DNA of 64,000 nt from Candidatus Scatosoma sp. GTDB taxonomy: Bacteria > Bacillota > Clostridia > Christensenellales > Borkfalkiaceae. The position numbers and the translations under genes are program-made. The notes under the pieces are model-generated. The model was not told where the DNA came from. It saw nothing but the letters and a program-made list of their open reading frames with translations, and did not search any database. The DNA lies in the NCBI GenBank assembly GCA_045650185.1, contig JAZRQY010000012.1, positions 1,026 to 65,025 of the forward strand, in the 5' to 3' direction. Positions 13,160-53,378 of the stretch are shown here, piece after piece; positions within the stretch are counted from its first letter, which is position 1; each line of letters begins with the position of its first letter.

Positions 13160-13265
13160 GGCATTAGCGGACGCGACCTTGCACCGCGAAACTTACGTCT
13201 TTGTTTCTTCGTCCGCCGACAACGTCCCGTTCGGCGACACTTTACGCGCAAAATCTACTCTTTGC
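13160..13265 (-). promoter_or_regulatory. THF (tetrahydrofolate) riboswitch, THF-I class
   Basis: Minus strand reads AAAGAGUAGAUUUUGCGCGUAAAGUGUCGCCGAACGGGACGUUGUCGGCGGACGAAG...CGCGGUGCAAGGUCGCGUCCGCU. This matches the remembered folT-motif core block by block (AGAGUAGAU..GCGCGU.AAGUGU...GGGAUGU...ACGAAG...GCGGUG...GCAUCCGCU). It is followed by the hairpin ACCTCTC-TTTC-GGGAGGT plus a T-run that overlaps the RBS. Confidence 0.85.
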
Positions 13266-18367: not shown

Positions 18368-18539
18368 ATCTTTTCTCCTTCGCCGCCTTTTGGCGACTTT
18401 TAAAATAATTCATTATTTTTTACGGAGAAAAAACGATAACGCAAAACCACCACGCCACCCAGCGCGGTACTCTTCGCCCCATTTTCGCATCCCCGCAAAA
18501 ATCCAGCTTTTACACAACGCATTCGACAAAAAATCTTCG

Positions 18540-18692
18540 TCAATCTTCGGCAGGTCTTCCGGCTTACAACGATTTGGCGCAGTTCAATTCGCACCCGCCC
18601 TACCCCTTCTCACCCATCGGCAATGGAATACGGCAATCGTTCTTACGGCTGCGGGGGCAGCGGAGTAATACTCTCTTCCCTATTAAATAGTT
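18540..18692 (-). promoter_or_regulatory. cobalamin (B12) riboswitch aptamer
   Basis: Minus strand reads AAUAGGGAAGAG...GCUGCCCCCGCAGCCGUAAG...CCAUUGCCGAUGGGUGAGAAGGGG...GUAAGCCGGAAGACCUGCCG. The last block is the B12 box, at 18548-18565. Confidence 0.85.
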
Positions 18693-18731
18693 GTCATTAA
18701 CAACCATACCGCGCGTTGCTATTCAGTTGTT

Positions 18732-24840: not shown

Positions 24841-24911
24841 TCTATTAAAAACGATTAGCGTGTTCTCCGATAAGGAGAGCACGCTAAAACTAATTTTGCC
24901 CTTATGAGCAA

Positions 24912-25085
24912 GTGAAGTTTACTTCGTAAGTGAAGTTATTCTGCGAATAGTGAAGTTTCGCCCAACGGCGAAGTTATGGAAAAATAAAATCCATTTCATT
25001 TTTGCACTTGCAAAAACTTCACTGCGCACAGCGCAACTTCACTGTGTTTACCTCAACTTCACTTTTGCCCTCGCAAAAACTTCAC
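24912..25085. repeat. hairpin-array repeat, complete copy (motif GTGAAGTT / AACTTCAC)
   Basis: GTGAAGTT at 24912, 24930 and 24950, plus a partial copy at 24968. AACTTCAC at 25015, 25035, 25055 and 25078. Most spacers are small hairpins with differing sequences. Confidence 0.8.
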
Positions 25086-26908: not shown

Positions 26909-27187
26909 ATAGCCGTTTCAAACCGAATTGAACCAGCCTTAAAATGTTATTTTCCGCGCCTTAGGGCGTTTGCGACCTTGCAGTATGTCGATACGGCGGC
27001 GGTCGCCACCGCCCAAATCCATCACAAAATCCCTATTTTAAGGTGCTACGCAGTTTTTACGAGCGAAAAAGAGCTTAAATAAAAGGATTTTTATGAATGA
27101 ATAGTCCGATTGTAAGCGGAAATTCTGCTTTAGTATTAGAGCTTTTTCGCCGTCAAAACCTGGTTAAACTTGGTTTGAAACGGCTAC
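26909..27187 (-). repeat. ~280-nt structured element, copy A (conserved interior, locus-specific long closing helix)
   Basis: Outer arms gtagccgtttcaaacc.../...ggtttgaaacggctat. The interior aligns with 35145-35421. The element ends directly at the GGGAGG RBS of the STAS gene. Confidence 0.7.
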
Positions 27188-28233: not shown

Positions 28234-29291
28234 GTCTTTCCTCCCGTTTTCCAGGTTGCGGAAAGAGGAATGGACGCCTTGGCGTTCAGGTTCATCGGCG
28301 CAAGGTTGCCGAGACGGTATTGTACCAGGCCCTCGGAGGCAATCATCACCGCATTGTCCGTGCAGTAGCGTTTTTCAGGCAACACCAACTTCAAGCCTGC
28401 CTTTTGGCACGCCGAAGTCAAGGTCAAACGCAGGTAGTCGTTGGCGGCTACGCCACCGCCCACCGTAATGGTATCTACCCCCGTTTCCTTCGCCGCTTGC
28501 AACGCCTTATCAACCAAGACATCAATCGCCGCCGCTTGGAAAGAGCAGGCAACGTCTGCTTTGGAATATTCTTCGCCTTTTTGCTCCTTCGTATGGCAGT
28601 AGTTGATGACTGCCGTCTTTAAACCGCTGTAAGAGAAGTTGTAGCCACCGCCACCCTTCAGCATCTTCGGCATCGGGATGCACGGCTTACCGTCCATCGC
28701 GCACCGTTGTACGTTCGGGCCGCCCGGATATTGCAAGCCTAAAACCCTTGCCACTTTGTCAAAGGCTTCGCCAGCCGCATCGTCCAGCGTTGCGCCCAAA
28801 ATCTCGAATTCAGCCTCCGTTTTTGCGTACAAAATCGCCGTATGTCCGCCGCTTGCCAGCAGGGTGATAAAGGGCGGTTTCAACGTCTTTTCCACAAGGT
28901 ACGCCGCCGCAATATGTCCGCGGATATGGTTGACGGCTATGAGCGGCTTGTTGAGCGCATAGGCGAACGCCTTTGCAAACGACACCCCGACGAGCAATGC
29001 ACCGAGCAGCCCTGCGCCGTAGGTGACGGCTACCGCATCAATCTCCTGCGCCGTAATCCCTGCCTTTTCAATGGCACGCGAAACGACCTCTGCCACGGCA
29101 TCGGTATGCGCGCGAGAGGCAATTTCGGGCACTACGCCCCCGAACAGCGCTTGCGTGGAAGCGGAAGAGGCAATCTCGTCCGACAGAATTTCTCTGCCGC
29201 GAATCACCGCTGCTGCCGTTTCGTCGCAAGAGGATTCAATCCCCAAAATAATCGGGTCTTTTTTGTGAATGTCAAAGGTAGGATTGTACAT
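28230..29291 (-). CDS. tsaD: tRNA N6-adenosine threonylcarbamoyltransferase
   Basis: ILGIESSCDETAAAV N-terminus and HIRGHI motif. 353 aa. Confidence 0.93.
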   Translation of the reverse strand: MYNPTFDIHKKDPIILGIESSCDETAAAVIRGREILSDEIASSASTQALFGGVVPEIASRAHTDAVAEVVSRAIEKAGITAQEIDAVAVTYGAGLLGALLVGVSFAKAFAYALNKPLIAVNHIRGHIAAAYLVEKTLKPPFITLLASGGHTAILYAKTEAEFEILGATLDDAAGEAFDKVARVLGLQYPGGPNVQRCAMDGKPCIPMPKMLKGGGGYNFSYSGLKTAVINYCHTKEQKGEEYSKADVACSFQAAAIDVLVDKALQAAKETGVDTITVGGGVAANDYLRLTLTSACQKAGLKLVLPEKRYCTDNAVMIASEGLVQYRLGNLAPMNLNAKASIPLSATWKTGGKT

Positions 29292-29307
29292 AAAAACCTT
29301 GTTTTTA

Positions 29308-29513
29308 GTGAATTGAAATCTTTGATTTCGTGAATTGACGGCAGAGCCGTCGTGAATTGAACGCTGATGCGTTCGTGAATTGCAAAGCTCTGCTTTGCGT
29401 TAAAGAAAAGTTTTAAATATTTCCGCAACGATTGCCAAAGGCAATCAATTCACGGCATCGCCAATTCACAAAACCGCAGGTTTTAATTCACGCATACGAA
29501 GTATGCAATTCAC
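29308..29513. repeat. hairpin-array repeat, complete and most regular copy (motif GTGAATTG / CAATTCAC)
   Basis: GTGAATTG at 29308, 29330, 29352 and 29375, each followed by a different 6-bp/3-4-nt-loop hairpin. CAATTCAC at 29446, 29462, 29484 (TAATTCAC) and 29506; three of the four are preceded by such a hairpin, the fourth spacer (ggc-atc-gcc) being only 3 bp. Confidence 0.85.
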
Positions 29514-29526
29514 TTATATTTAGCAA

Positions 29527-29559
29527 GGGGCGGTAAAATGATACCTGCCCCCTTTTTTT
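29527..29559 (+). terminator. plus-strand intrinsic terminator directly after the hairpin array
   Basis: ggggcgg-taaaatgatac-ctgcccc followed by CTTTTTTT. No plus-strand CDS lies upstream. Confidence 0.5.
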
Positions 29560-29731
29560 GTGTTTTGTAGTAACCGCAACGCAGTAACTGCGCCGCATTT
29601 TGTAGGCGTATCCGTAGGAAAATGCAAGCAAGACAAGAAGAACGAGGAAAACCCGAAGGAGTTTACTGAGCGTAAATGACTGAGGGTTGCCACAGTTCGA
29701 CGAAGTATTGCGCCGCATTTTGTAGGATACC

Positions 29732-35144: not shown

Positions 35145-35421
35145 CAGTCTGACGAGTATCGAACCCATCAGTCTTAAAATGTTTTTTCTTGCGCCTTCCG
35201 ACGCTAATGCCCTTGTAGTATGACGATACGACGGCGGTCATTACCGCCAAAATCCACTGCAAAAACCCTATTTTAAGATGCTCACAGTTTTCACGAGCGT
35301 AAAATTTTTTAGGCGAAAGGAGCTTTCACGCAGAAATACCGCCGTATTGCAAGTGGAAATCCTGCACGGATAGGAAATTTTCCGCCGTCAAAACCTGATG
35401 TGTTCGATACTCGTCAGACTG
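35145..35421 (-). repeat. ~280-nt structured element, copy B (conserved interior, locus-specific 20+5-bp closing helix)
   Basis: Arms cagtctgacgagtatcgaac.. / ..gttcgatactcgtcagactg. The interior aligns with 26909-27187. The element ends 4 nt before the metK RBS. Confidence 0.7.
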
Positions 35422-35557
35422 AACTATAGTTCTTCTCCGCGCTTGGGATTTGCAGAGAAGTTCCCATACACAGGGAAGGTTAGTATAACATAGTTAAAGA
35501 TAAAAGTCAACTAAAAATACACCTCGTCTTTCGCATAGAAGTGACAAAATAGAAAAG

Positions 35558-35787
35558 TCGATATGTCAACTGCGTTGACTCGATATATTCTCGCTTTGCT
35601 CGAACTCGATATATGGTCGCTACGCTCCCATTCGATATGAGATAAATTCCTCTTGCTTTTGCTTGTCCAAAAGCATATCGAGCCGTAGGCATATCGAATT
35701 GCGCCAGCAATATATCGAAAATCCCGCAAGGGATTTATCTCGATGCGTGTTGCCTACGCAGGACAACACGCTAAATGTGCTTGCGCT
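35558..35787. repeat. hairpin-array repeat (motif TCGATAT / ATATCGA), inverted homolog of 56262-56499
   Basis: TCGATAT at 35558, 35580, 35606 and 35632. ATATCGA at 35675, 35691, 35712 and 35737 (ATCTCGA). A terminal hairpin gcgtgttg...caacacgc follows. Confidence 0.8.
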
Positions 35788-38829: not shown

Positions 38830-39858
38830 ATGAAACTGAAAAAAAGTGTTGCTATTCCTTTAAAAATTTTGGCTTGGGTTGCCAGCGTGTTGGCTGGGTT
38901 GCTCATCTTAGTGTTCGTCGGTGAAAAGCTGTTCTTCGCTTCCTTCTTCTTCGGCGGCGCAAAGATTGCGATGCGCACCCCTGGTACTTGGACGAATTAC
39001 GTACAGCAGGGTTTTGACCGCTTGGAGGACGGCACCTTCGTCGTTTCCGCTTACGATAAGGGGGACGAGAATGCGGCTCTCTTTCTTATCAAGGACGGCA
39101 AGGAAACCCTCTGCCAGCTGAAAAACGGCGACGGAACGCCCTACCTTAGCCACGCAGGCGGCGTGACTCACTACAAGAACTGGGTGTACGTTGCCACCGA
39201 CAACCACGCCGACAAGGAAGGCGACGTCTACTGTATGCACGAGAGTTGCGACACTAACCTCGATATGTTCCTTTTGTCCGACGTTCTTGACGGGGACGGC
39301 AAAGCAACGAAGGTGGACAGCGTTATCGTTCCCAACCGCTTGGCATACGCGTCCGTGTACGGCGACCTCTTATATACCGGCGCTTTCCATCGCGCAGGCA
39401 GTAAGTATATCACTCCCGAAAGCCACCATCTCACCACCCCTGCAGGGGACGAGAATACGGCGCTGATGATGGTGTATAAGCTGGATGAAACCACGGGCAA
39501 GCCCGTCAGCGCAACGCCTGAATTCTGCTATTCTACAATCTCCAACGTGCAGGGCATGTGCATTACGGGGGATAACGACATCGTCCTTTCCACCTCTTGG
39601 GGCTTGGGTATCTCCCACCTCTATCAGTACGAGCTGGACAACGCAAAGAAAGGCACGATCTCCTTGGGCGGTGAAAGCGTAGAAGTCTACTATTTGGACG
39701 GCGCTTGCCTTGAAACGACTCTCTCCTGCCCGCCGATGGCAGAGGAGCTGGTTTGGCTCGAAGGCAGAGTGTATATCCTCAGCGAATCCGCTTCCATGAA
39801 GTACCTGTATGGCAAACTGATGAGCGGCAACCATATTTACAGCTATCCCATGGCGTAA
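38830..39858 (+). CDS. membrane-anchored hypothetical protein (beta-rich ectodomain)
   Basis: 342-aa ORF with an N-terminal TM helix and an RBS (TAGGAG). No family recognised. Confidence 0.6.
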   Translation: MKLKKSVAIPLKILAWVASVLAGLLILVFVGEKLFFASFFFGGAKIAMRTPGTWTNYVQQGFDRLEDGTFVVSAYDKGDENAALFLIKDGKETLCQLKNGDGTPYLSHAGGVTHYKNWVYVATDNHADKEGDVYCMHESCDTNLDMFLLSDVLDGDGKATKVDSVIVPNRLAYASVYGDLLYTGAFHRAGSKYITPESHHLTTPAGDENTALMMVYKLDETTGKPVSATPEFCYSTISNVQGMCITGDNDIVLSTSWGLGISHLYQYELDNAKKGTISLGGESVEVYYLDGACLETTLSCPPMAEELVWLEGRVYILSESASMKYLYGKLMSGNHIYSYPMA

Positions 39859-39872
39859 GGGTGCAAGCCCTA

Positions 39873-39963
39873 ACGAAGTTTGTCTTTTAGACAAGTGAAG
39901 TTCTTTTCAAGAGTGAATTTTGCCTTGCCTGCAAGGCAAGTGAAGTTTCGCGAAACCGCGAAA
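39873..39963. repeat. hairpin-array repeat, left half only (GTGAAGTT-type)
   Basis: (AC)GAAGTT at 39873, GTGAAGTT at 39895, GTGAATTT at 39913 and GTGAAGTT at 39940, each followed by a small hairpin. No inverted half follows. Confidence 0.65.
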
Positions 39964-40152
39964 TATAGAACAATTTAAATAAAAGACGCTTTGATAAAAT
40001 AATGAAAAAAAGACTTTACCTTACTTGGTAAAGTCTTTTTGTTTTTGTTTGATTTTTCACTTTGTTTTCATTCATTCAAAAATGACAACGCAAAGATTAG
40101 CACGGAGATTCTTCGACCGTGCTACGCTCCGCTCAGAATGACAGCAAGAGGA

Positions 40153-40758
40153 TTAGAAACCCAAAAGTTGCCTTTTCTTCGTTTCAAATTCTTCTTGTGT
40201 GATGATACCGCTATCCAACAGTTCTTTGTATTTTTTCAGTTCGTCTGCAGGGCTCGCGGCGGTGTGCATAGGAGTGGGTGCGGCTTGCCCTTTTTCTTTT
40301 TCTTTCTGTCTTTCGATTAATAAATTACAAAGCACGTTTCTAATTTCTTTTGAGTTTTCAATATATAGAAATTTTATCAAACCCGAGTCTGTGGCAACGG
40401 AAATTCCGTTAAACCAACTCGTCCCCACGGAAGAAATACTATCCATCGGCAAGTCCACACTACGTCCAAAATAGGTTTTTCCCGTAACGTACTTATCCGT
40501 TACAGTAATTTCCATTTTACTGGTCATCCAATAGTCAATAAAGAAAGCTACAGATATTAATGTGAACACAAGTGAGATATACATTTCAGGAAATTCAAAA
40601 AAGCTGAAATGGCGGCCGTAGTGATGCCTTCTCTCAAGTGCGTCACATTGAGAAGCCGTAATTAAAAGAAAGATTATTGCCAAAAGCAAAGAACCGATTG
40701 CTAAACTTAAAATTATACCTTTTACCTTTTGTGTAATTTTGCTTGTTATTTTTTCCAT
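40153..40758 (-). CDS. membrane protein with bPH-like middle domain and C-terminal SHOCT domain
   Basis: Start at MEKITSK. Two or three TM segments. The C-terminus ELKKYKELLDSGIITQEEFETKKRQLLGF is a typical SHOCT motif. Confidence 0.65.
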   Translation of the reverse strand: MEKITSKITQKVKGIILSLAIGSLLLAIIFLLITASQCDALERRHHYGRHFSFFEFPEMYISLVFTLISVAFFIDYWMTSKMEITVTDKYVTGKTYFGRSVDLPMDSISSVGTSWFNGISVATDSGLIKFLYIENSKEIRNVLCNLLIERQKEKEKGQAAPTPMHTAASPADELKKYKELLDSGIITQEEFETKKRQLLGF

Positions 40759-40772
40759 TGTATTTTTCTCTA

Positions 40773-40976
40773 TTATAAATTTTTTATCCAATTTTCGTAG
40801 CATTTGCATTTGCCCTGTCTTTTTCGCTCTTCTCTAAATTTAGAGCTGCCTAAACATTCGCAACGCCCTGTTTCTTCAAACGTAACCACTTTTGTTTTAT
40901 CGCCATAAATAACTTCACGCTGACCATTCCAATATAAGCACGTACCGCACATCACACGGTCATACTTACTTTCCAT
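40773..40976 (-). CDS. small Cys-rich (zinc-ribbon-like) protein
   Basis: Start at MESKYDRV. CGTC...CEC...CKC cysteine pairs. Stops 14 nt upstream of the SHOCT gene start. Confidence 0.5.
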   Translation of the reverse strand: MESKYDRVMCGTCLYWNGQREVIYGDKTKVVTFEETGRCECLGSSKFREERKRQGKCKCYENWIKNL

Positions 40977-41072
40977 TCGTAAATACCTCCAAAAATTATT
41001 TTGCAATCATATTATATCCTACATTTTGTAGGAAGTCAATTATTTTCCTACTATTTGTAGTAAAATATTTTT

Positions 41073-41282
41073 ATGAAAAACAATATTTTCGGAAAAAGAT
41101 TAAAAGAATTGCGAATGGAAAAGGGATTTTCTCAGCAAAAATTAGGGGAAATTTTTGGGTTTTGCAATCAAACGATTAGCTTTTGGGAAAGCGGTAGTCG
41201 TGAACCTGATTTAGACACCCTATTAGAAATCGCACATTATTTTGAGGTAGCGTTGGAAGATTTATTAGAAGAAAATAAATAA
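41073..41282 (+). CDS. XRE-family helix-turn-helix transcriptional regulator
   Basis: 69 aa. GKRLKELRMEKGFSQQKLGEIFGFCNQTISFWESGSREP is a canonical HTH_3 pattern. Divergent from the 40976 gene. Confidence 0.85.
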   Translation: MKNNIFGKRLKELRMEKGFSQQKLGEIFGFCNQTISFWESGSREPDLDTLLEIAHYFEVALEDLLEENK

Positions 41283-41407
41283 ACACGGTTGCTTTGTTGC
41301 AATCGTGTTTTTTTCTGTAAGCCCTGATTTAAGAAGTTGCAGAGTCAAATAAATAAAGCGGAAAGGATCTTTTTTCATCCTCTCCGCTTTGTTTTGTAGG
41401 CAAATTC

Positions 41408-42241
41408 TTATTTGTCTGTCGTTTTATTCTCTTGGGGCGCTTGCGTAATCATATGAACGTTCATATGAGGATAGCTGAATTCTATCCCGCTTTTTTCAAA
41501 GGTCGGTTTTATCGCATTCATTACGTCAAAATACACCGTCCAATAATTTGCATTCTCGCACCAAGCGCGGGCCGTATAAAGAATATCGTTATCCCTAAAT
41601 TCTTGAACGTGAACAACAGGCGTTTTTCCTTCTTCTTGCAGAACCAAAGGATGTTCGTCAATCAGTTGCTTTAATACGGATCTCACCTTTTCCACGTCAT
41701 CGTTATAAGAGGTAGCAATCAAAAATTCTACTCTGCGCGTAGGCGAGTTGGAATAATTGATGATGCTGTCGTTTGCAATTTTGCTGTTGGGAATTTGAAT
41801 CAGCTTTTTATCAGGCGTGTCCAACTTTGTGTAGAACAAACCCACTTCTCTCACCGTACCCGCCTCACCGCCAACTTCAACGTAATCCCCTACTTTGAAG
41901 GGATGGTTGGTGATAATCTGGATCCCACCGAATACGTTGCTCAAAAAGCCCTGAATCGCCAAGGAAAGCGCAACGCCGACAACGGACAGCGCAGAAACCA
42001 AAGAAGTAACCGATACCCCAAGACTGCCAAGCACGATGGTAACCGATATAAACAAAAGAACTGCTTTGATAAAGCCTCGCAATATCTTTTTTACCATTTC
42101 GTCCATTTTTGACTTGTTGGTTAATTTATCAAACAAAGACAAAATAATCTTAATGACAATCAAGCAAACCGCAGCAATCGCAACCGCTACAATCGCCTTT
42201 TCCCAAGGAAGTTGTTTCAAAAAATCCCAAACTGCATCCAT
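41408..42241 (-). CDS. MscS-family mechanosensitive ion channel
   Basis: 3 TM segments plus a beta-domain (PFKVGDYVEVGGEAGTVREVGLFYTKL). Confidence 0.85.
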   Translation of the reverse strand: MDAVWDFLKQLPWEKAIVAVAIAAVCLIVIKIILSLFDKLTNKSKMDEMVKKILRGFIKAVLLFISVTIVLGSLGVSVTSLVSALSVVGVALSLAIQGFLSNVFGGIQIITNHPFKVGDYVEVGGEAGTVREVGLFYTKLDTPDKKLIQIPNSKIANDSIINYSNSPTRRVEFLIATSYNDDVEKVRSVLKQLIDEHPLVLQEEGKTPVVHVQEFRDNDILYTARAWCENANYWTVYFDVMNAIKPTFEKSGIEFSYPHMNVHMITQAPQENKTTDK

Positions 42242-42273
42242 AAAAAATTCTCCTTCAAAGTTTGCAAAACCGC

Positions 42274-42921
42274 CTACTTCCGTAATGCGCTTAAAACTTG
42301 TTCGCTAATTTGCGACATCCCTTTCGCCGTCGGGTGTCCGCATTCTTTGTCGATATCCTTCAAACGGATATATTGTAAACCATAATACTCGGCGACTGTT
42401 TGAAGGGCGTCCTGTATTTCGCTTTTAATATCCGTGTTAATGATAACTATAATTTCCGCATTCGGCAATTCCGATTTTAATACGCCTACAAAATAGGAAA
42501 CCGCAGGCAGTACTTGGAATAAATCTTGCTCCTCCCAGTTGGAGAATTTTATTTTTCCAAGAGGTGCATCCGACCAACTATCGTTCGTGCCGCCAAATAC
42601 GAAGACCGTATCCACAGTATTCTTCTCGAAAAAGCCTTCTTCTTTCAGTTTTCTAAAGCGATAAATAAACGAACTCGTTTTCGAGCAATCGCCATCATAA
42701 CCCGTGTGTCCAATCGTAGAACCCGACCAACTGTCATTTAACAGCAAATGATCACCCGTCGCGCCGAATGTTTTTTTCCACCAAGTTTCTTCCAATTGCA
42801 TTTTTCTAACCGCTGGGCCTTTAGTAGTTCCTTGCGGACTATAATAAGTATGATGCCCTTCGGGAATACATCCTTCATACGTTGAATAACTATCTCCAAA
42901 TATAACGATATTTTTCATCAT
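42274..42921 (-). CDS. SGNH/GDSL-family hydrolase
   Basis: Start at MMKNIVIFGDSYS (GDS block), with later GGTND and DxxH-like (ECGHPTAKG) blocks. Confidence 0.75.
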   Translation of the reverse strand: MMKNIVIFGDSYSTYEGCIPEGHHTYYSPQGTTKGPAVRKMQLEETWWKKTFGATGDHLLLNDSWSGSTIGHTGYDGDCSKTSSFIYRFRKLKEEGFFEKNTVDTVFVFGGTNDSWSDAPLGKIKFSNWEEQDLFQVLPAVSYFVGVLKSELPNAEIIVIINTDIKSEIQDALQTVAEYYGLQYIRLKDIDKECGHPTAKGMSQISEQVLSALRK

Positions 42922-42988
42922 TGCCTCACAATTCTTTCGTGTATTTTTTGTCAAATATTTATATTATTTTCCTGCTGTAAAATAGAAA

Positions 42989-43020
42989 CACGTCTTTCTT
43001 GACGGCTCAAGAAAGACGTG
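42989..43020 (-). terminator. native terminator of the tRNA gene, now next to the displaced tRNA 3' fragment
   Basis: Perfect 14-bp stem cacgtctttcttga-cggc-tcaagaaagacgtg, followed on the minus strand by a T-rich tract, 3 nt from the tRNA fragment. Confidence 0.7.
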
Positions 43021-43023
43021 CTG

Positions 43024-43068
43024 TGGTTGAGGCGACGGGACTTGAACCCACGACCTTTTGGTCCCTAA
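43024..43068 (-). repeat. 45-bp direct repeat: displaced 3' half of the tRNA (att site, distal end of island)
   Basis: tggttgaggcgacgggacttgaacccacgaccttttggtccctaa is identical to 53468-53512. Confidence 0.9.
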
Positions 43069-43165
43069 ATATCTTTCGATATGCCACACCCATGCTGAAA
43101 GCCTTTAAAATAAAGGAACTTTACATAATCCGCGAATTAATTTTAGAGTATCAACAGCCGTTTTG

Positions 43166-43194
43166 TTGACCTATTTGACCTAACTGTTGACCTG
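43166..43194 (+). promoter_or_regulatory. three direct TTGACC(TA) repeats (putative integrase arm-type sites, distal end)
   Basis: TTGACCTA at 43166, TTGACCTA at 43175 and TTGACCTG at 43187. The same motif occurs twice at 53379-53398. Confidence 0.55.
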
Positions 43195-43543
43195 ATTATA
43201 TTATACCAAATCCGCGCAAAAATGTCAAGAAATAACCGCCGCCGCAACAGAAATTCTTCAGAAAACATACAGCTTTTGAACACCTTTCAAGCATCCCAAA
43301 AGCATCCTAAAAACAACTCAAATACCTCCCACACGAATCTTTATTGCACGTTTGTAACATCTTTCAATAAAGATTTTTTTATCTTTGAAAAAACTTTTTA
43401 AAAATTTTTTATTGAAAATAGTAAAGTACAATTTAAGTGACAGGTTTTACTAATAGACATGTTATACTATGAGTGTAAAAAGGTTGAGGCAAGAGCTCAC
43501 CGAAACCTTGTTACAAAAATAAAAAAATACGGAGAATTCAAAA

Positions 43544-43903
43544 ATGAATCAGAAATTTAAAGTAAACTTTGTCACCAGAACAATTGAAGTATCCACCTCT
43601 TTCGCAAAGAAAGCAAGCATCTATGGCTCAACGGAATATCAAATGCTTACCGATGCGCAAAAGGCGCACCCTGAATATACGCTCGATATTCAAAAGCCCA
43701 AGAAAAGCGTAATTAAAGGCATCGACCATGAGTTTATGCGCAAATATATTATGGCTCATGATGAAGATAATAAGTTGATGAATGCGTTTGATAAACTCGT
43801 TGCCGAGAAGCTTTCTTACCCTGAACTTAAAGCTTGGTTTGTTGATAAATACCCTGTGTTTAAAGAATGCAAAACAAGAGCAGATTGGATTTTAGCGGCG
43901 TAA
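43544..43903 (+). CDS. island hypothetical protein, paralog 1
   Basis: 119 aa with a good RBS (ACGGAGAA). Shares S(I/L)YGS.EY.ML..A....P.Y and a C-terminal (K/A)WF...(F/Y)P(E/V) pattern with the next ORF. Confidence 0.6.
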   Translation: MNQKFKVNFVTRTIEVSTSFAKKASIYGSTEYQMLTDAQKAHPEYTLDIQKPKKSVIKGIDHEFMRKYIMAHDEDNKLMNAFDKLVAEKLSYPELKAWFVDKYPVFKECKTRADWILAA

Positions 43904-43931
43904 TGAAAATTAAAAAAGGAGAAATAATAAT

Positions 43932-44330
43932 ATGAAAAATACGCTTAGAATTAATCACAAAAACAACCAACTAGTTATGGATAGAGAATTTTCTATCAAG
44001 TCCTCTTTGTACGGCTCGCAAGAGTATAATATGCTCCAAGCGGCAAGACAAGATTATCCCACCTATCAGGTAGTACGTAAAACCATCAAGAAAAACTCGC
44101 AAAAAGAAGCGTTTGACGGCTTAACCTACGAATATATGGAACGTTATATGGAAAGATATAACACACCTGCGGAAACGCGCCAAAAGTACCAAGAAATGCG
44201 TTTTATGGCAAACTGCCATTCCATTCGCTATCCCGTTATCAAAAAGTGGTTTTTGGAAACATTCCCCGAAGTAAAAGATTGGGGTAAAAAGAAAGAAGAA
44301 TTTGCGGCGGACGCCGCCCTGAGCGCATAA
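43932..44330 (+). CDS. island hypothetical protein, paralog 2
   Basis: 132 aa, RBS AAAGGAGA. Paralogous to 43544..43903. Confidence 0.6.
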   Translation: MKNTLRINHKNNQLVMDREFSIKSSLYGSQEYNMLQAARQDYPTYQVVRKTIKKNSQKEAFDGLTYEYMERYMERYNTPAETRQKYQEMRFMANCHSIRYPVIKKWFLETFPEVKDWGKKKEEFAADAALSA

Positions 44331-44342
44331 AGGAGGCTAATT

Positions 44343-44702
44343 ATGACTGTACCCAACCAAAAAATCATCAAAATTCATAAACCCAATATTCAAAAAGACC
44401 CTTTTGTTTCTTTAAACCTTGATATCATGGGAAAGGTTTATAAGGATTTGGCGTGTAATGCCTACACCTTTTATCTTTATCTATGCTTATGCGGTAACAA
44501 GGATGGATTTTCTCTTGAGTTTTCGCCACAACATATCAAAGATAGATTTGGTTTGCCTACCTCTACAGCGCAAGACCAATTCAAGAAATTGGTTGCTAAA
44601 GGTTATTTAGTACCAAAAAATGAAAACAGTAATATTTATGATTTTTATTACGAACCCGAACACTTGAAAGTGAATCCATCCGAAATCACATTTGATTTTT
44701 AA
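44343..44702 (+). CDS. winged-helix DNA-binding protein (phage/plasmid replication-organiser-like)
   Basis: 119 aa, RBS AAGGAGG. FSPQHIKDRFGLPTSTAQDQFKKLVAKGYLV looks like a wHTH. Confidence 0.5.
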   Translation: MTVPNQKIIKIHKPNIQKDPFVSLNLDIMGKVYKDLACNAYTFYLYLCLCGNKDGFSLEFSPQHIKDRFGLPTSTAQDQFKKLVAKGYLVPKNENSNIYDFYYEPEHLKVNPSEITFDF

Positions 44703-45003
44703 GCGGACGGCGTGCAAAAAAAGTTTGAATCGTACGCCATGCAAAAAATCCGTTTGACGTTTTAAGTTGTGGAAGCCGTTAAGCCCTAATTGTAAGACCT
44801 TATAGAAATATATAAATAAAAAAGGTGATAAATAAAGAATATATATATACGCAATAGAACCGCTTCCATTCCCCCTTAGGATGAAAAATTAAGCAATTTA
44901 GGAAAAGCCTCTCATGAAAAATTTAATATTATATAGAACGTAAAAACCACCGTTGACGCGGTGGTTTTTTCAAGAGAAAACAAGAATAAGGAGATTATAT
45001 AAT

Positions 45004-45330
45004 ATGAATAGAGGTTTTTTTCATAGCGACCCTGATGAATTAAGAATTTTAGGACGAATTTCTGACGAAATGTATTACATGATGAAAAGGCGTGAAGCCG
45101 CCGCAAACTTTGACGTGGAAGAACAAAAGAGATGGATGCGTTTAGAGCTTTTAGATAAACGTCAAAAGCAACAGAAAGAGGCTGAAGAAAGAGAAAAACA
45201 GAGGCAAGAGAAAGCAAAAGCAAAGAAAGAACAAGAAAAAATTATTAAGGAAGCGGTAGAGAAAGACTTGCCTAAACAGATTGAAAAGGAATTACAAAAA
45301 GAAATTCAAAAAATTTTTTCTAAACATTAA
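45004..45330 (+). CDS. hypothetical coiled-coil Lys/Glu-rich protein
   Basis: Start at MNRGFF after AAGGAG and just downstream of a terminator hairpin (44943-44972). The upstream part of the track ORF overlaps that hairpin. Confidence 0.5.
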   Translation: MNRGFFHSDPDELRILGRISDEMYYMMKRREAAANFDVEEQKRWMRLELLDKRQKQQKEAEEREKQRQEKAKAKKEQEKIIKEAVEKDLPKQIEKELQKEIQKIFSKH

Positions 45331-45570
45331 AAAGAAACGAGTCGGCAAACGCCGCGACAAGTCGCGCCGCCGCCTCGTTTCTTTTACGCTTCGCGACAAA
45401 AGCACTCCAGAAAAAAAAGGAATGCAATAGACACTATTGAAAACGGCTCCGTTTTTGAAACGAAAATAACATTTCAAAATTGAACAGCCCACACCTATTG
45501 GGAAATAAGCAAAATTTTTATTTTTTCCCGAAATAATCCCCCCCCCTACAAGGTAAGAGCCGCCACCCAC

Positions 45571-45599
45571 TTGCCAAAAGAAAAGCTTTGTGATATACT
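45571..45599 (+). promoter_or_regulatory. sigma-70-type promoter of the WYL regulator gene
   Basis: TTGCCA, 17 nt, TATACT. A C9 homopolymer lies 25 nt upstream. Confidence 0.5.
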
Positions 45600-45630
45600 A
45601 TACTTATTAACAAAAGGCGGCAGCTATGTT

Positions 45631-46713
45631 ATGAAACGATTTAATCAAAAATTAAAAGCTTTTTTGATTTATCAATATTTAATGGAAAATACCGATGAAA
45701 ATCATTGTCTTTCCACAACGGATATTTTAGACTTTTTAGAGAATGACATGGGCATCAAAGCGGAGCGCCGCTCCCTTTATACTGATATTGATGAAATCAA
45801 TAAAACTCTTTATGCCCTGCGGAAAGATATTTCAATTGAAGAAGCTGAACTTGAAATTGAAGAAAAAGAAAATGACAAGTGGCAAACCATCGTTTATGAC
45901 GGGAGTAGAAAAGGCTATTATGTCCGCAAGCGCGATTATAAACTGAACGACGTCAACGCTATTGTGGAATGTATTTATGCGGCAAGATTCATTACGGAAG
46001 AAAAGGCGAAACAATACGTCGATATTATCACGCGCAACCTTGTCAGCATCCACCAAGCGGATGAAATTCAGCACGAAGCTCTGCTTTTGGATAGAGGGAA
46101 AGCCATCAATCCGCATGTGTTTGAAAACGTTCAAAAGATATACAAGGCGATGCGCGTAAAAGCAGGGAAAGAAAAACATGTTCCTGAAAAGATTTCTTTT
46201 AAATACGTAGCCGCCGCACCCAAGGGTAAAACAACAGAAATGCGCAAAGGCGAAAGATATGTTGTAAGTCCCTTTAAATTGATAATCAATGACGGCAATT
46301 ATTATTTGCTTGCTTTTGATGAAAAGAAAGCCGCCGCACGCACTTTCCGCGTAGACAGAATGAAAGAAATTAAGCCTTTAGGAATTCCAAGGGAACGCAT
46401 GGATGAACTGTTTTCTGTTGACAAAACCGCCTATATTAAACAACATTTTGGTATGTATAGCGGCAAGGTAGAACGCGTTACCCTTAGATTTATCAATAAG
46501 CTGTTGGATACAGTATATGATAAATTCGGTAGGGATAATCTTTACTATACCCAAGTGGATGATAGGCATTTTACCATTCAAGTAGAAGTCGCTGTTACCG
46601 ACCAATTTTTCGGTTGGTTGTGTAGCTTGGGTCGTACGGTAAAAGTTATGTCGCCGCCGCACGTTCAGGAAAAATACAAAGAACATTTGGAAAAAATTAA
46701 AAATATGTATTAA
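45631..46713 (+). CDS. HTH + WYL-domain transcriptional regulator (BrxR/CapW-like architecture)
   Basis: Start at MKRFNQK. N-terminal wHTH (LSTTDILDFLENDMGIKAERRSLYTDI). WYL core (VVSPFKLIINDGNYYLLAFDEKKAAARTFRVDRM). Confidence 0.8.
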   Translation: MKRFNQKLKAFLIYQYLMENTDENHCLSTTDILDFLENDMGIKAERRSLYTDIDEINKTLYALRKDISIEEAELEIEEKENDKWQTIVYDGSRKGYYVRKRDYKLNDVNAIVECIYAARFITEEKAKQYVDIITRNLVSIHQADEIQHEALLLDRGKAINPHVFENVQKIYKAMRVKAGKEKHVPEKISFKYVAAAPKGKTTEMRKGERYVVSPFKLIINDGNYYLLAFDEKKAAARTFRVDRMKEIKPLGIPRERMDELFSVDKTAYIKQHFGMYSGKVERVTLRFINKLLDTVYDKFGRDNLYYTQVDDRHFTIQVEVAVTDQFFGWLCSLGRTVKVMSPPHVQEKYKEHLEKIKNMY

Positions 46714-46785
46714 ATTTATTGCTTTTATTAAGAATATTTTTCGTGTAATGTGAATATACTATAAGTAAAATTATTTAAGCGTAAC

Positions 46786-46971
46786 ATGAAAATGAAGATC
46801 GAACATAAAGTAAAAATGCAAATATATACATTAAAAAAGTTGAACGATATTGATTTGGGTGATTTGAATTTAGTTCGACGAATAGCCCTTAAATTAAAAA
46901 TGTATGAATTAATTGCTTTTATTAATCAAAATTGGCAAGAGTATCTTGATTTTATACAAACAATAAAATAA
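46786..46971 (+). CDS. small hypothetical protein (61 aa)
   Basis: ORF ending immediately before a strong bidirectional terminator. No family recognised, and it may not be expressed. Confidence 0.3.
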   Translation: MKMKIEHKVKMQIYTLKKLNDIDLGDLNLVRRIALKLKMYELIAFINQNWQEYLDFIQTIK

Positions 46972-46998
46972 AGCCTTTGGTTTTTCCAAAGGCTTTTT
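46970..46998. terminator. bidirectional intrinsic terminator between convergent island genes
   Basis: aaagcctttgg-ttttt-ccaaaggcttttt. Confidence 0.8.
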
Positions 46999-47002
46999 GT
47001 TT

Positions 47003-49030
47003 TTAGAACTTAGAGCTATTTAACATTGATACTCGATCTATGCCAAATACTTTTTTATAATCTGCAACGCGTTCATTAATTAATTCTTGGATATTAGTAA
47101 TATCTGAATATTTGGTCGCATCATCAGGATTAATTCCTGTAACTCGTAATACTTCGCTAAATAACCATGTATAAGGTCTAAGTTCTTCTAACGATTTATC
47201 ACTTTTTGCAATATTTTCAAGCTTGGGCAAGAGAGCTTTATTTCCAAGGCTTTCCATTAATTTTTCATCTATTGTTGTTACATTGTTGAATTGAGCTTGG
47301 GCATAAATATGATCAATTTCATATACCGCACTTGCCCCCTCGCCATCAAAAGAAGGTCTCATTTTCTTTAAACAATAATAGTGATAAATAATGCCTTTAT
47401 CAACATTAGAGTTAGAGCCACTTGCAAATGCATCAATAACTTTTTCCCATTCCTCAAAAGAGACAGCAACAAAGCGATCGCTAATATTTTGAAGATCTCT
47501 AGCCAATCTTGAATCAGCGGAGCCCGCCCAAAGACGACTACTATATTCATACAATAAACGATCGCATAGAATTACCGCATTTTTTTGGTATTCGCGCAAT
47601 TTTACTTGGTTGTTTTTGGTCGGTTTACCTAATTCGACCCAATTTTTATAAATTAAAGCAGAGAACTCAAGCGCAACCGAATTACCCATTAAGGACATGA
47701 TCGATTGCTTCCAAGACATTAAGAATTTAAAGTATTCACAATCATACAATAAATCCATTGCTATATTAAACTCACGGATAAATGCCTCTACATCTTTATT
47801 CCAATCCAATCTTGCTTTTCGTTCATTTTCCAAATCTTTTACAGAGTTACTACTAATACCGCCTATATAGATTGCGCTAAGCAATTTAAATCCAAGTGTT
47901 AACTTACGCGTAAATAAAGCCTGCGTTGTATTTTTGTCTGTTAAGTCGATTTTGGTAAATACCAAATTAGCTTTATCAATTCTAGAAAGTAGCGTAGCGC
48001 AAACGTCCCAACGTACTACATTGTTTGGAACATTAATTCCAAGGAAGTTATATAATTCTTGGGCTGATGCGCGGATTTCGTCGCTAGGATTGGATATTTC
48101 CATATTCCAAAAAGGTCTAGCAGATAATAATTCCTCCGCTGTTAAAGGTGCGCCGCCGCCATTAACAAGAGAGAAAATATTTTGTGCATCTAAAGGGGAT
48201 GCATCTATTAATCGAATTAATCCAATTCGAGCGTTTATAATAATCTCATCTGTCTTCCGAATAGTATTAAAACACTTCTCAAAATAAGCCCAATGGTCAG
48301 TAATAAAATTATCTAGTTTTTTAATATTTCTATCATCTAATCTATAACGCTTAATTAGATAATTGGTAAAATCTGCTTTTTCTGTTTCCTCTTCATCAAT
48401 TCTACTTTTAATAAATTTTTTCAGCTTTATGGGATCAATGATATATTCCCCATTAGAATATACAGAATATTCCAATTCTGCAATATCAATGATTTTGGAA
48501 AATTTAAACATGCCCTCAAAACGATTAGACCCACCGTATTTTGAATGAACTAAAAGAATTAAATCCAATAAAGCATGCATATTTTCGCTTTGAGTTTCTG
48601 CATCAAAAGTTCTACCTTCACAAACCTCATCGCTATTTTCTATAAGTGCATCTATGTCCGCAGCATCTTCCGTGGATTTATTAAACTCAGATTGTAAATA
48701 TTCGCTAATTTTTTCGGAAAAACGATCTCGAACTTCATCTTCAGGCATATTGGTTTTTATACCAATAAATCGTTGTGCCCATCTATAAACTTCGACAGGA
48801 TTTTGATACATGGTAATGAGCGCATTACGTCTTTGACGTCCGTCTAATAAGAATTTTTTCGTTCCTGTTTCATTAACAATTACAACCCCGATAGGGTATC
48901 CTTTAAAAACACTGATCGATAATTTAAAGTTGTCGATATCCTTCCATGTTGCTTTTCGTTGAAAACGAGGTAAATCAATTTTATTGTTTAAAAAATAACT
49001 TGTTGTATTTTCAGATATACCGAATGCCAT
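47003..49030 (-). CDS. DUF262 + DUF1524 protein (GmrSD / SspE / BrxU-like NTPase-nuclease)
   Basis: N-terminal DUF262 motifs LPRFQRKATW and LLDGRQRRNAL. C-terminal His-Me/HNH-like DUF1524 (YEIDHIYAQ...LGNKALLPKLENIAKSDKS). AGGAGG RBS 13 nt after the upstream stop. Confidence 0.85.
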   Translation of the reverse strand: MAFGISENTTSYFLNNKIDLPRFQRKATWKDIDNFKLSISVFKGYPIGVVIVNETGTKKFLLDGRQRRNALITMYQNPVEVYRWAQRFIGIKTNMPEDEVRDRFSEKISEYLQSEFNKSTEDAADIDALIENSDEVCEGRTFDAETQSENMHALLDLILLVHSKYGGSNRFEGMFKFSKIIDIAELEYSVYSNGEYIIDPIKLKKFIKSRIDEEETEKADFTNYLIKRYRLDDRNIKKLDNFITDHWAYFEKCFNTIRKTDEIIINARIGLIRLIDASPLDAQNIFSLVNGGGAPLTAEELLSARPFWNMEISNPSDEIRASAQELYNFLGINVPNNVVRWDVCATLLSRIDKANLVFTKIDLTDKNTTQALFTRKLTLGFKLLSAIYIGGISSNSVKDLENERKARLDWNKDVEAFIREFNIAMDLLYDCEYFKFLMSWKQSIMSLMGNSVALEFSALIYKNWVELGKPTKNNQVKLREYQKNAVILCDRLLYEYSSRLWAGSADSRLARDLQNISDRFVAVSFEEWEKVIDAFASGSNSNVDKGIIYHYYCLKKMRPSFDGEGASAVYEIDHIYAQAQFNNVTTIDEKLMESLGNKALLPKLENIAKSDKSLEELRPYTWLFSEVLRVTGINPDDATKYSDITNIQELINERVADYKKVFGIDRVSMLNSSKF

Positions 49031-49043
49031 AACTTCCTCCTAA

Positions 49044-49733
49044 TTAATAAATTATATTATTGAAAATATTGGTAAAATCGTATTCTTTGGAACTTTTTAA
49101 GACATTTAAAACTTGTTTTATATTCGTTCTACGCCTTATATAAGTAGTTCTCGAAAGATCATATAAATAAGACTCTAGCTCAAAAGTGCCGTTTGATGAT
49201 TTTAAAATAACTTGTCTTATTAATTTATTTCTAATGATTAGACGATGCAATAATTGCTCTTTTCGCTCTTTTTCATATTCTTGAAATACGTATCCTATTG
49301 CGGATAAATAATACATTTTTTCATGTTTAAATGTTAATCCTAAGAGCATTGCGGTTTTTAAATGATTTTCCCCATATTTGGTCAAAGCACCATCTTTTCG
49401 CTGAATATCATCATCTAATAACATGCGCCCCATATCTATAAAATTAGTTCCTAAAGGATTCCTATTATAAAGTTTAGAGCAAACTCTTGTTGTTGCATCT
49501 ACGAAGTCGCTGAATTGAAATGTATCAGCCGCCGCAATTGCTTCACGAGGTATATTATTAAAAATATAATCTAGAAAATTAATGAGGGGAATATTTATAA
49601 TAACATCTAAATAATTTTTTAATTCTTGTTTATGGATAATAAACTGATTATCTAAAACAAACTGATTAAAGCATCGATCAATATCGAAAGAAAAGAATGT
49701 TTTCAAAAGATTCTTTTGCTCATCATTCATCAT
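49044..49733 (-). CDS. unknown 229-aa protein, middle gene of the radical-SAM/DUF262 operon
   Basis: Its start ATGATG overlaps the stop of the radical SAM gene (ATGATGAATGA). No motif recognised. Confidence 0.65.
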   Translation of the reverse strand: MMNDEQKNLLKTFFSFDIDRCFNQFVLDNQFIIHKQELKNYLDVIINIPLINFLDYIFNNIPREAIAAADTFQFSDFVDATTRVCSKLYNRNPLGTNFIDMGRMLLDDDIQRKDGALTKYGENHLKTAMLLGLTFKHEKMYYLSAIGYVFQEYEKERKEQLLHRLIIRNKLIRQVILKSSNGTFELESYLYDLSRTTYIRRRTNIKQVLNVLKSSKEYDFTNIFNNIIY

Positions 49734-50889
49734 CTTGCGCCTCCGTTAATGTAAAACTTTCATATCTTAAATCGAAATATTGTTTTGCGATGTCGGGATT
49801 TTCTTTTTCAAAATCCATCATTGCACGCATTGTTGAACAATATCCATCGGATTTGTGAAGCTCTTGATTCGCATTACAAAATTGCCTGAAACTCATTTTT
49901 TTAAAAATACTAGGTTGGTTCCCCCAACGCGCCAATGCAACATAGAGACTACGATATTTTGACTCTTTCCAAGGGGAGTAGCTTTTATCTTGATAGCGCA
50001 TTATATAGGGAAGGCATTTGTAACGCATTAGTAAAGCGAGTCGTTTGAATGCATTTTCTATATCCTTCGCATCTGTACTTTCAAATCCTACTAGAACATA
50101 AAATTTAACACTTGTAGAATTTGTATATTTGCGAATGATTTTCAACTTTTTGTGGATTAAATCATAGTCGGAAATATTATCAAAAGCAAAAGTATAATCG
50201 CCGTCATAACGAACATTAAATAAAATTTTAGCTCTTTCTTCCGTTATTAAACGCTCATCTAAGCCTTGCTTAAATTTAAATGGTTTTTTTGTTGAAATTA
50301 AAGTATTTAATGCCTCTTGCCAATGAGGGCACCCCAAAAAATTGTCATCAAGCAAGCAAATTTTTTTGCGTGTTGGATCATAAAATTCTTCTAGCGGACT
50401 ATGAAGAAATACTCGATCATATTTTTGATTTACGCAAAATTTGCACTTCCTAAAACATCCGCGAGTGATAAAACCTATACTATAATCTGTATATTCCTTA
50501 AATTGTACTCTAAAAGATTTTTCTTTAAATTTAGTACCCTGTATAGCTTTTGCTTTAGCTACTTCATTTTCGATCCATTCATCATATAAGTGATAATCGG
50601 GCATGTGATGCTCAATTTCGTCGGGAAGATTAGGAGCTTGATCAAAATAAAATCCTGTCCCGCCCATGTGTATCTTTTCAGAAGCTTGTACCCATGCTGG
50701 GATGGGCGTGTCGGTAAAGACTTTTGAAATATATACCTCATCATAAGAATGAATATCGTCATAGGAAAGCAATAAATGGACATCTGCGCCTTGTTCTTTC
50801 CAATAGCCTGATATTTTTTCGCAAGCTAAATTAGGGAATCGATGTTTTTGACGTCCTAAAAGATCTGCATCAATTATACCAATTTTCAT
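49723..50889 (-). CDS. radical SAM enzyme with N-terminal Rossmann/B12-binding-like domain
   Basis: Start at MKIGIIDADLL (Met17 of the track ORF), after AAAGGTG. GFITRGCFRKCKFCVNQ is a CX3CX2C motif. 388 aa, with no SPASM-type C-terminal Cys cluster. Confidence 0.8.
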   Translation of the reverse strand: MKIGIIDADLLGRQKHRFPNLACEKISGYWKEQGADVHLLLSYDDIHSYDEVYISKVFTDTPIPAWVQASEKIHMGGTGFYFDQAPNLPDEIEHHMPDYHLYDEWIENEVAKAKAIQGTKFKEKSFRVQFKEYTDYSIGFITRGCFRKCKFCVNQKYDRVFLHSPLEEFYDPTRKKICLLDDNFLGCPHWQEALNTLISTKKPFKFKQGLDERLITEERAKILFNVRYDGDYTFAFDNISDYDLIHKKLKIIRKYTNSTSVKFYVLVGFESTDAKDIENAFKRLALLMRYKCLPYIMRYQDKSYSPWKESKYRSLYVALARWGNQPSIFKKMSFRQFCNANQELHKSDGYCSTMRAMMDFEKENPDIAKQYFDLRYESFTLTEAQDDE

Positions 50890-50919
50890 AATAGCACCTT
50901 TAAGGAAATATGTATGGAC

Positions 50920-50948
50920 ATTATACATTAATTTCATGCATTCGTCAA
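50920..50948 (-). promoter_or_regulatory. sigma-70-type promoter of the radical-SAM operon
   Basis: Minus strand reads TTGACG, 17 nt, TATAAT, in the 74-bp gap between the Fic stop and the radical SAM start. Confidence 0.65.
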
Positions 50949-50963
50949 TACATTATCCATTTT

Positions 50964-53335: not shown

Positions 53336-53378
53336 GTTTTTCCTTCCTTTGCGGAAGATGTTAAAAGCTCTTTTTTTG

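Follow-up and report, generated by a model that had tools for sequence, protein, structure and literature searches.

A hairpin array in a 64-kb stretch of Candidatus Scatosoma DNA (the window) is one copy of a family of small, noncoding, insertion-polymorphic elements found between genes in uncultured gut Clostridia (Christensenellales) and in their phages and prophages. We describe the sequence features, predicted fold, distribution, and sequence constraint of this family. Each full element carries about 4 identical short "rungs," a centre with a shared motif, and about 4 rungs of the reverse complement, and almost every inter-rung spacer is an end-to-end palindrome. The window holds 4 full copies and 1 half copy, and about 15 more were found in a related MAG, in metagenome contigs, and in phage or prophage contigs; rung and hairpin sequences differ among copies, while the ladder architecture is kept. 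Our literature searches returned nothing with this architecture. With moderate confidence, we read the family as MITE/REP-like mobile structured repeats, in which the mobilizing enzyme and any role at the RNA level remain matters of inference.

The hairpin array at tsaD

The archetype occupies positions 29308-29513. The octamer GTGAATTG lies at 29308, 29330, 29352, and 29375 on the plus strand; its inverse, CAATTCAC, lies at 29446, 29462, and 29506, and the shorter AATTCAC lies at 29485. The octamer has 7 matches in the window, all inside the element, against 2.6 expected. The observation made in an earlier note, that 4 octamers and their 4 inverse copies alternate with distinct hairpins, is confirmed. 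The spacers are perfect hairpins, exactly as that note described: gaaatc-ttt-gatttc, gacggc-aga-gccgtc, gaacgc-tgat-gcgttc, (g)caaagc-tct-gctttg(c), (g)attgcc-aaa-ggcaat(c), ggc-atc-gcc, aaaacc-gca-ggtttt, and gcatac-gaa-gtatgc. Two refinements can be made. The conserved rung is the 7-mer GTGAATT/AATTCAC, since the eighth base (G...C) is the closing pair of the next hairpin, such that hairpins abut rungs with no unpaired nucleotide. Furthermore, 1 additional hairpin, AAAAAC-CTT-GTTTTT (29292-29306), precedes the first rung, between it and the tsaD start codon (29289-29291, minus strand).

The left arm (29308-29381, plus strand) has rungs at 29308-29314, 29330-29336, 29352-29358, and 29375-29381, separated by perfect hairpins at 29315-29329, 29337-29351, and 29359-29374. 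It is followed by the centre-proximal left hairpin, GCAAAGC-TCT-GCTTTGC (29382-29398). The A/T-rich centre (29399-29429, plus strand) is closed by GTT...AAC and carries the family-wide motif (TTAAATATTTCC here; consensus ATAAAT(A)TYCC); it forms the apex of the fold and defines the orientation of the element. The centre-proximal right hairpin, GATTGCC-AAA-GGCAATC (29430-29446), leads into the right arm (29447-29513, plus strand), with rungs at 29447-29453, 29463-29469, 29485-29491, and 29507-29513 and hairpins at 29454-29462 (a 3-bp stem), 29470-29484, and 29492-29506.

The predicted minimum-energy structure of either strand is a ladder of stacked four-way junctions. As RNA, the fold reaches -94.0 kcal/mol (z = -7.3) on the plus strand and -100.4 kcal/mol (z = -9.3) on the minus strand; as DNA, it reaches -57.1 kcal/mol (z = -8.9).

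Distribution of the family

A k-mer scan revealed the same arrangement at 3 other places in the window. The second member (24855-25085, minus strand) has its array at 24912-25085, with rungs GTGAAGT(T)/(A)ACTTCAC (GTGAAGTT/AACTTCAC) and a terminal hairpin, GCGTGTT..AGCACGC, at 24858-24884. The third (35523-35772, plus strand) has rungs TCGATAT/ATATCGA, an array at 35558-35743, and a terminal hairpin at 35745-35771. The fourth (56282-56499, minus strand) is a paralogue of the third in the opposite orientation, with its array at 56310-56499 and its terminal hairpin at 56282-56308; position 56499 marks the end of the array rather than a defined outer left boundary. A scan for hairpin density alone was too unspecific, whereas chained-hairpin and k-mer-plus-palindrome scans were effective. 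The chained-hairpin scan added a half element (39858-39965, plus strand), consisting of a left arm only, with rungs ACGAAGT, GTGAAGT, GTGAATT, and GTGAAGT plus hairpins, that breaks off where a low-GC island begins.

The flanking genes belong with those of Candidatus Scatosoma/Christensenellales MAGs from ruminant guts. Among 80 related loci (1.36 Mb), only the related MAG L043 (JAFTVF01) carries such elements, with 2 copies; none was present in 78 other related loci totalling about 1.3 Mb. A metagenome scan for 3 copies of GTGAATTG returned mostly ordinary tandem repeats and at least 2 true relatives, contigs L168 and L095, which have the same rung, unrelated hairpins, and a homologous centre; the stem of the centre-proximal left hairpin of the archetype occurs in L095 with a different loop. 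Scans of IMG/VR with other rung types provided many more copies: 2 in phage L242 (L242a and L242b), 1 in L244/L318, the orthologous sets L422/L443/L424/L439 and L380/L427/L434, and single copies in L448 and L461.

When oriented by the centre motif, which is shared by all rung types, the copies have about 4 left rungs, the centre, about 4 right rungs, and, in many, a further variable hairpin at the right end. The length from first to last rung is 144-206 nt, and whole elements span about 170-260 bp.

Structural constraint

The hairpins are not a product of chance. Of 85 inter-rung spacers (9-20 nt) in 15 elements, 67 have an end-anchored perfect stem of at least 4 bp, against a mean of 1.85 and a maximum of 7 in 2000 shuffles. 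All 13 complete elements fold with z between -4.0 and -8.7 on both strands, and the predicted folds include long-range rung pairs.

We counted variable alignment columns in 3 sets of orthologous or paralogous copies. Rungs almost never change (1 of 175 columns), stems change mostly by compensated double substitutions (11 of 158), and loops change freely (17 of 80); the flanks of 2 of the 3 sets vary at 18 of 76 and 15 of 45 columns. Examples of stem changes are T-A to C-G, C-G to T-A, G-C to A-T, and GCC/GGC to GCGC/GCGC. RNAalifold finds double changes in 25 of 69 pairs in an alignment of 3 copies and in 12 of 53 pairs in an alignment of 8. Hairpins that are homologous across subfamilies, such as AAATCC(C)-loop-(G)GGATTT, keep their stems and change their loops.

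Insertion polymorphism

The copy at tsaD is an insertion of about 215-230 nt. In relatives L001 (98% TsaD identity) and L002 (96%), the site reads ...ACAT-AAGCAGATGTTTCA-AGGGGCGG... and runs directly into a hairpin plus T-run; contigs L220-L222, which encode TsaD at 94%, 92%, and 89% identity, have spacers of only 54-189 nt. The site is empty in all 5 of these close relatives. The DNA that is present here and absent from the orthologous site extends over approximately 29292-29520, and an 11-nt imperfect direct repeat, CTTGTTTTTAG/CTTATATTTAG, flanks the array. Because of this repeat, the outer hairpin at 29292-29306, which lies in the stretch that differs from the empty sites, may be diverged native sequence rather than inserted DNA. 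The hairpin plus T-run at 29527-29559 (plus strand) occurs at the element-free sites of L001 and L002; it is therefore native to the locus and not part of the element.

Other copies also have empty sites in relatives. The 35523-35772 copy is a clean insertion between 2 divergent promoters when compared with L002, and the 24855-25085 copy replaces a terminator that is present in L001 and L002. One of the L043 copies (L043a) is an insertion compared with related loci L021 and L057, supplies the stop codon of the upstream gene, and has a 10-bp outer inverted repeat, GAGTGAAATG. Contig L242 is a bona fide phage, with TerL, portal, and major head genes; its 2 elements lie between TerL and portal and between a scaffold-like gene and the major head gene. 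The second site is empty in MT839259 and occupied in the diverged phage L244/L318, where TerL and portal share 69% and MCP 77% nucleotide identity. Between L244 and L242b, the hairpins are recognizably homologous, with compensated changes, and 7 of 8 rungs have switched from TCGATAT to GCGATAT; the rungs therefore evolve in concert.

Direct repeats at the flanks are inconsistent: 4-5 nt or an imperfect 11-13 nt in 2 cases, 18 nt in 1, and none detectable in most. The 18-nt repeat, in L242b, suggested that the terminal hairpin is generated from target DNA at insertion. This is contradicted by the occurrence of the same GCGTGYT..ARCACGC hairpin at 3 unrelated window loci and its absence from the L002 empty site.

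Searches for known families and associated genes

Rfam searches at gathering thresholds over the whole window gave no hit in the region, and searches at E<=10 on 2 elements gave only unrelated subthreshold hits, the best with E values of 0.8-4; CRISPR-DR models reached 16-18 bits against gathering scores of 37-42. BLAST of the element against PLSDB plasmids and INPHARED phages gave only chance matches of 20-45 nt. No sigma-70-like site lies in the centre or upstream of the array on the plus strand. No transposase was found among the window ORFs searched, where the only recombinase is the integrase of the tRNA-Pro island, and no mobilizing gene was found next to any copy. An attP-like site next to an integrase was considered, but the gene beside the tRNA-locus copies is a 39-codon ORF rather than an integrase, and the neighbours are lysis genes. 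Similarly, the island at 40.0-53.6 kb was considered as an autonomous version bounded by arms, but no right arm lies at its other end.

The interpretation in the earlier note was partly supported. It viewed the array as a genuine, nonrandom element that folds as a ladder of short helices with paired side hairpins, keeps hairpin geometry while stem sequences vary, and fits neither CRISPR, REP/BIME, nor any riboswitch known to its author. These views hold, no Rfam family matches, and the hairpin geometry is conserved across many copies, with compensatory changes between related copies. Its suggestion of a discrete plus-strand transcript of about 250 nt is not supported, as it rested on the downstream terminator, which is native to the site, and no promoter-like site lies in or before the array on that strand. 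Its statement that the pattern does not fit a MITE is too strong, given empty sites in relatives, several diverged copies per genome, paralogous copies at unrelated loci, and copies in phages. Of the conditions it had set as refuting, loss of hairpin geometry in other copies is clearly not seen; random presence and absence is seen, but together with strong constraint, so these are not junk palindromes.

A mobile folded element as the favoured reading

The analysis itself establishes the architecture, the fold of either single strand into rung helices joined by perfect four-way junctions (as predicted), the absence of copies from orthologous sites in close relatives, and their occurrence at unrelated loci between genes in any arrangement and either orientation, including within operons such as phage late operons. 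It also establishes that copies persist after insertion with the architecture intact, with nearly invariant rungs that change in concert, paired substitutions in stems, and drifting loops. The family is mobile, or at least insertion-polymorphic, structurally constrained, and strand-symmetric. What we infer is the mechanism: that the element is mobilized in trans, and that the enzyme recognizes the folded single strand, most likely of DNA. This inference draws on a structure that is equally good on both strands, on rung spacing (16-27 nt) that is not helically phased as a duplex protein-binding array would require, and on the reversed rung polarity of one copy. Mismatch correction within the folded form, selection by the mobilizing or another rung-specific protein, or both would keep stems perfect, produce double substitutions, and make rungs more conserved than stems, because a mutant rung is outnumbered 7:1. 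In operons, the element would be transcribed and would add a very stable RNA structure, which may be tolerated or may serve as a module protecting or processing mRNA ends, as REP/BIME elements do.

Several findings weigh against this reading. No enzyme is encoded in the element or identified near it, target-site duplications are inconsistent, and copies within one genome are very diverged, with no sign of a recent burst from one master copy. Long retention in streamlined phage late operons and strong conservation relative to flanks could mean that the primary selected function is cellular or phage RNA biology rather than selfish mobility.

Bacterial intergenic repeats (REP, MITEs, CRISPR) have repeatedly led to new enzymology, and this family reverses the usual logic, in that linkers are conserved and palindromes vary. 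The MITE/REP-like behavior is of a kind already known; as far as we could find, the architecture is undescribed, combining conserved 7-8-nt linkers, unique palindromes, a fixed 4+4 ladder, a conserved apex motif, concerted rung evolution, and presence in both hosts and phages. If the element is mobilized as a folded single strand, it points to an unrecognized structure-specific transposase or recombinase in abundant but uncultured gut Clostridia. If it acts as RNA, it is a portable, orientation-independent mRNA structure module that phages retain in their late operons. In practical terms, these elements break assemblies and create presence/absence variation in Christensenellales MAGs, and they show that a terminator next to a structure can mislead the annotation of small RNAs.

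Alternative readings

The strongest rival, possible but considerably less likely, is that the element is primarily a cis-acting structured RNA module, transcribed within operons (prfB-tsaD; phage TerL-portal and scaffold-MCP). The ladder, or the 2 hairpin arrays left by cleavage in the A/U-rich centre, would protect mRNA ends, set differential stability, or uncouple neighbouring cistrons, and mobility would only be the means of spread. Several copies lie inside codirectional operons, with the outer rung 16-45 nt from the ribosome-binding site of the next gene: tsaD, fmt in L168, and the major head and portal genes in phages L242/L318. Retention of 1 copy at a phage site through about 25-30% nucleotide divergence, purifying constraint relative to flanks, a very stable RNA fold, and the precedent of mRNA stabilization by REP/BIME elements are consistent with this view. 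In contrast, orientation relative to neighbouring genes is not consistent (about 7 versus 3 independent insertions), some copies sit between convergent gene ends or upstream of promoters where read-through is unlikely, and folding energies are symmetric between strands. G.T wobbles split 3:3 between strands, which argues against a single-strand RNA function but rests on 6 events. In addition, pure selection on RNA structure would let the rung pairs of one element diverge from each other, whereas they evolve in concert.

A more speculative reading, which we regard as unlikely, is that these elements are a new class of mobile DNA whose unit of recognition and inheritance is a folded single strand of stacked four-way junctions. 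Rungs would be kept identical by intramolecular correction, hairpin "cassettes" could be exchanged or created between duplicated rungs, and the elements would be related to hairpin-less inverted 8-mer arrays in phages and soil bacteria. An as yet unknown structure-specific enzyme would move them, possibly by nicking the conserved A/T-rich apex as HUH enzymes do.

It is also unlikely that the rungs are duplex-DNA binding sites, whether subterminal transposase sites as in Tn7 or Mu ends, iterons of an origin, or arm-type integrase sites, with incidental hairpins. Direct repeats on one side and inverted repeats on the other, around a central imperfect palindrome, are the layout of transposon ends and of attP; rungs are the most conserved part, the archetype has a 22-23-nt period, and 3 copies lie near prophage or island ends. 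However, across the family the period ranges from 16 to 27 nt without helical phasing, the prevalence of palindromic spacers is not predicted by this model, and compensatory changes keep stems paired. Moreover, L242a has its rung polarity reversed relative to the centre yet keeps the fold, rung sequences differ between subfamilies within one genome, such that several cognate proteins would be needed, and no adjacent integrase or transposase is associated with full copies.

The weakest reading is that the array is self-generated: palindromic units would be inserted one at a time into a rung with duplication of the rung, in the manner of a target-site duplication or CRISPR-style repeat duplication, and the array would be a record of insertion events rather than a selected structure. 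This reading draws on the identical 7-8-nt direct repeats flanking each hairpin, which is the geometry of an insertion with target duplication, the unrelated hairpins of copies with the same rung, the hairpin-less inverted tandem 8-mer arrays at the equivalent site in related phages, and similar arrays of the same octamer in soil contigs, but it is very unlikely because unit number is held at about 4+4 in all subfamilies, homologous hairpins keep their positions across diverged copies with no gain of units, no candidate integrase is known, and units flanked by direct repeats should be lost quickly by slippage unless selected.

Comparison with known systems

REP/BIME/REPIN elements, mobilized by RAYT (IS200/IS605-like Y1 HUH transposases), are likewise short, noncoding palindromic units clustered in alternating orientation in intergenic regions and inside operons; they fold as single strands, vary in presence between strains, are nonautonomous, and affect mRNA stability. 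In REPs, the palindrome itself is the conserved repeat, present in tens to hundreds of near-identical copies with a conserved GTAG-type 5' tetranucleotide, and a RAYT gene is flanked by REPs. Here, stems differ between and within copies, only rungs and the centre motif are shared, the 4+4 architecture is fixed, copies also occur in phages, and no RAYT was found among the window ORFs searched or next to phage copies.

Bacterial MITEs with strong secondary structure (Correia/NEMIS, ERIC/IRU, RUP, BOX, Chunjie, Nezha) are also intergenic and noncoding, at 100-400 bp, with inverted-repeat ends and empty sites in relatives; they are cotranscribed with neighbouring genes and can supply stop codons or terminators. 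The present elements share the small size, noncoding character, multiple copies, and presence or absence at orthologous sites. Classical MITEs have continuous terminal inverted repeats, a fixed-length target duplication, and high identity between copies, whereas here arm complementarity is limited to 7-8-nt blocks interleaved with arm-specific hairpins, copies share architecture rather than sequence, and no partner IS was identified.

Folded single-strand recombination sites (the integron attC bottom strand; CTX-phage attP(+)) are comparable in that function would depend on a hairpin-folded strand whose structure is conserved while its sequence varies. The attC site has R''/L''-L'/R' boxes (RYYYAAC/GTTRRRY), extrahelical bases, and one imperfect stem, and it accompanies gene cassettes next to an IntI integrase; none of these features is seen here, the GTT...AAC closing of the centre being only 3-4 nt and outside the consensus. 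CRISPR arrays share the regular alternation of a constant short sequence with unique sequences of similar length, but their repeats are 23-50 nt rather than 7-8 nt; here, the unique parts are self-complementary 9-20-mers, the array is mirrored, and there are no cas genes. Transposon ends or origins with multiple short protein-binding repeats (Tn7, Mu, and IS21 ends; plasmid iterons; geminivirus or RCR origins with iterons plus an apical A/T-rich nick loop) differ in that the present spacing is not phased, the spacers are obligately palindromic, no Rep or transposase gene is associated, and several copies with different motifs are scattered through one chromosome. They do share several copies of a short motif, direct on one side and inverted on the other, around an A/T-rich centre, and the centre of some copies (TAATATTCC) resembles the HUH nick-loop sequence TAATATTAC.

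Interrupted ladder elements and their junctions

The centre of the ladder element may be a hotspot for insertion or recombination, as suggested by 2 elements that are broken at this point. The first is the half ladder element at 39858-39965 of the window, whose broken centre coincides with the integrase-distal end of a low-GC (34-37%) island at about 39966-53640. The island lies next to tRNA-Pro (53468-53544) and carries a tyrosine integrase (52166-53335), a Fic/DOC protein, a GmrSD-type endonuclease, a WYL-WCX regulator, a SHOCT protein, and others; as such, it is probably an integrated defence island. The second is in the metagenome contig L095 (880-1007), where the left arm and the first 10 nt of the centre, apparently in inverted orientation relative to the window copy, are followed by unrelated GC-rich DNA containing the palindrome GGGGCGACCATCGGTCGCCC.

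Interruptions and unusual junctions are also observed in the copies from phage or prophage contigs. In phage L244 (5495-5625; the same as phage L318, reverse complement), a GC-rich insertion of about 130 nt sits inside the third left hairpin of the ladder element, while the rest of the element is intact. In contig L380 (8030-8200), and also in L427 and L434, the ladder element plus a terminator abuts the 3' third of an IS256-family transposase gene (motif ...TTNAVESINSSFRKVTKKGAFPNE...), and the transposase gene is truncated at that point. In phage L242, ladder element L242b is flanked by an 18-nt exact direct repeat, CCCGGCTAAGCGAGCCGC, at 4305-4322 and 4566-4583. This repeat covers the last codons and stop codon of the upstream gene plus half of the terminal hairpin, and it is much longer than any flanking repeat at other copies.

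Repeat arrays without side hairpins

Inverted arrays of tandem 8-mers that lack side hairpins are present in soil and rhizosphere metagenome contigs (L111:200-390, L122:2080-2230, L140, L147, L120, and L192:1-160) and in phage L318 (3400-3520). Examples include (GGTGAATT)n ... (AATTCACC)n, in one case directly upstream of rpmJ, and (AATTGAGA/AATTAAAA)n ... (TCTCAATT)n in the TerL-portal spacer of phage L318. That phage site is where the related phage L242 carries a ladder element, and these arrays may be hairpin-less relatives of the ladder architecture. Four copies of TCTGATA at window positions 2101-2181, irregularly spaced by 17-30 nt in a low-GC intergenic region, are separated by spacers that are not palindromic; this is possibly a regulator-binding array and not a ladder element.

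Other features of the window

Two features lie near the ladder element upstream of tsaD. A conserved hairpin plus T7 run, oriented for the + strand, lies directly upstream of tsaD at 29527-29559, although both neighboring genes are on the - strand. It is found at the same site in the 2 closest relatives, L001 and L002, and is conserved in relatives without the element; it could terminate an antisense transcript or act bidirectionally. In addition, a repeat unit of about 110-120 nt, starting and ending with ATTGCGCCGCATTTTGTAGG, is located between prfB and the ladder element (window 29575-29726; L002:9655-9912; L001:1-78). This unit is tandemly duplicated (2-3 copies) in L002 and has no Rfam match.

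The window also contains a conventional MITE of about 257 bp with perfect 14-bp terminal inverted repeats (GACGAGTATCGAAC...GTTCGATACTCGTC), which is unrelated to the ladder elements. It has 2 copies in the window, at 35161-35417 and 26934-27162 (73% identical), and further copies in L001 (6971-7229 and 9770-10002) and L002 (20145-20377). Finally, a tmRNA (tag ADYNANYALAA) at 4363-4728, a THF riboswitch at 13163-13264, and a cobalamin riboswitch at 18532-18728 are all on the minus strand and all above the Rfam gathering scores.
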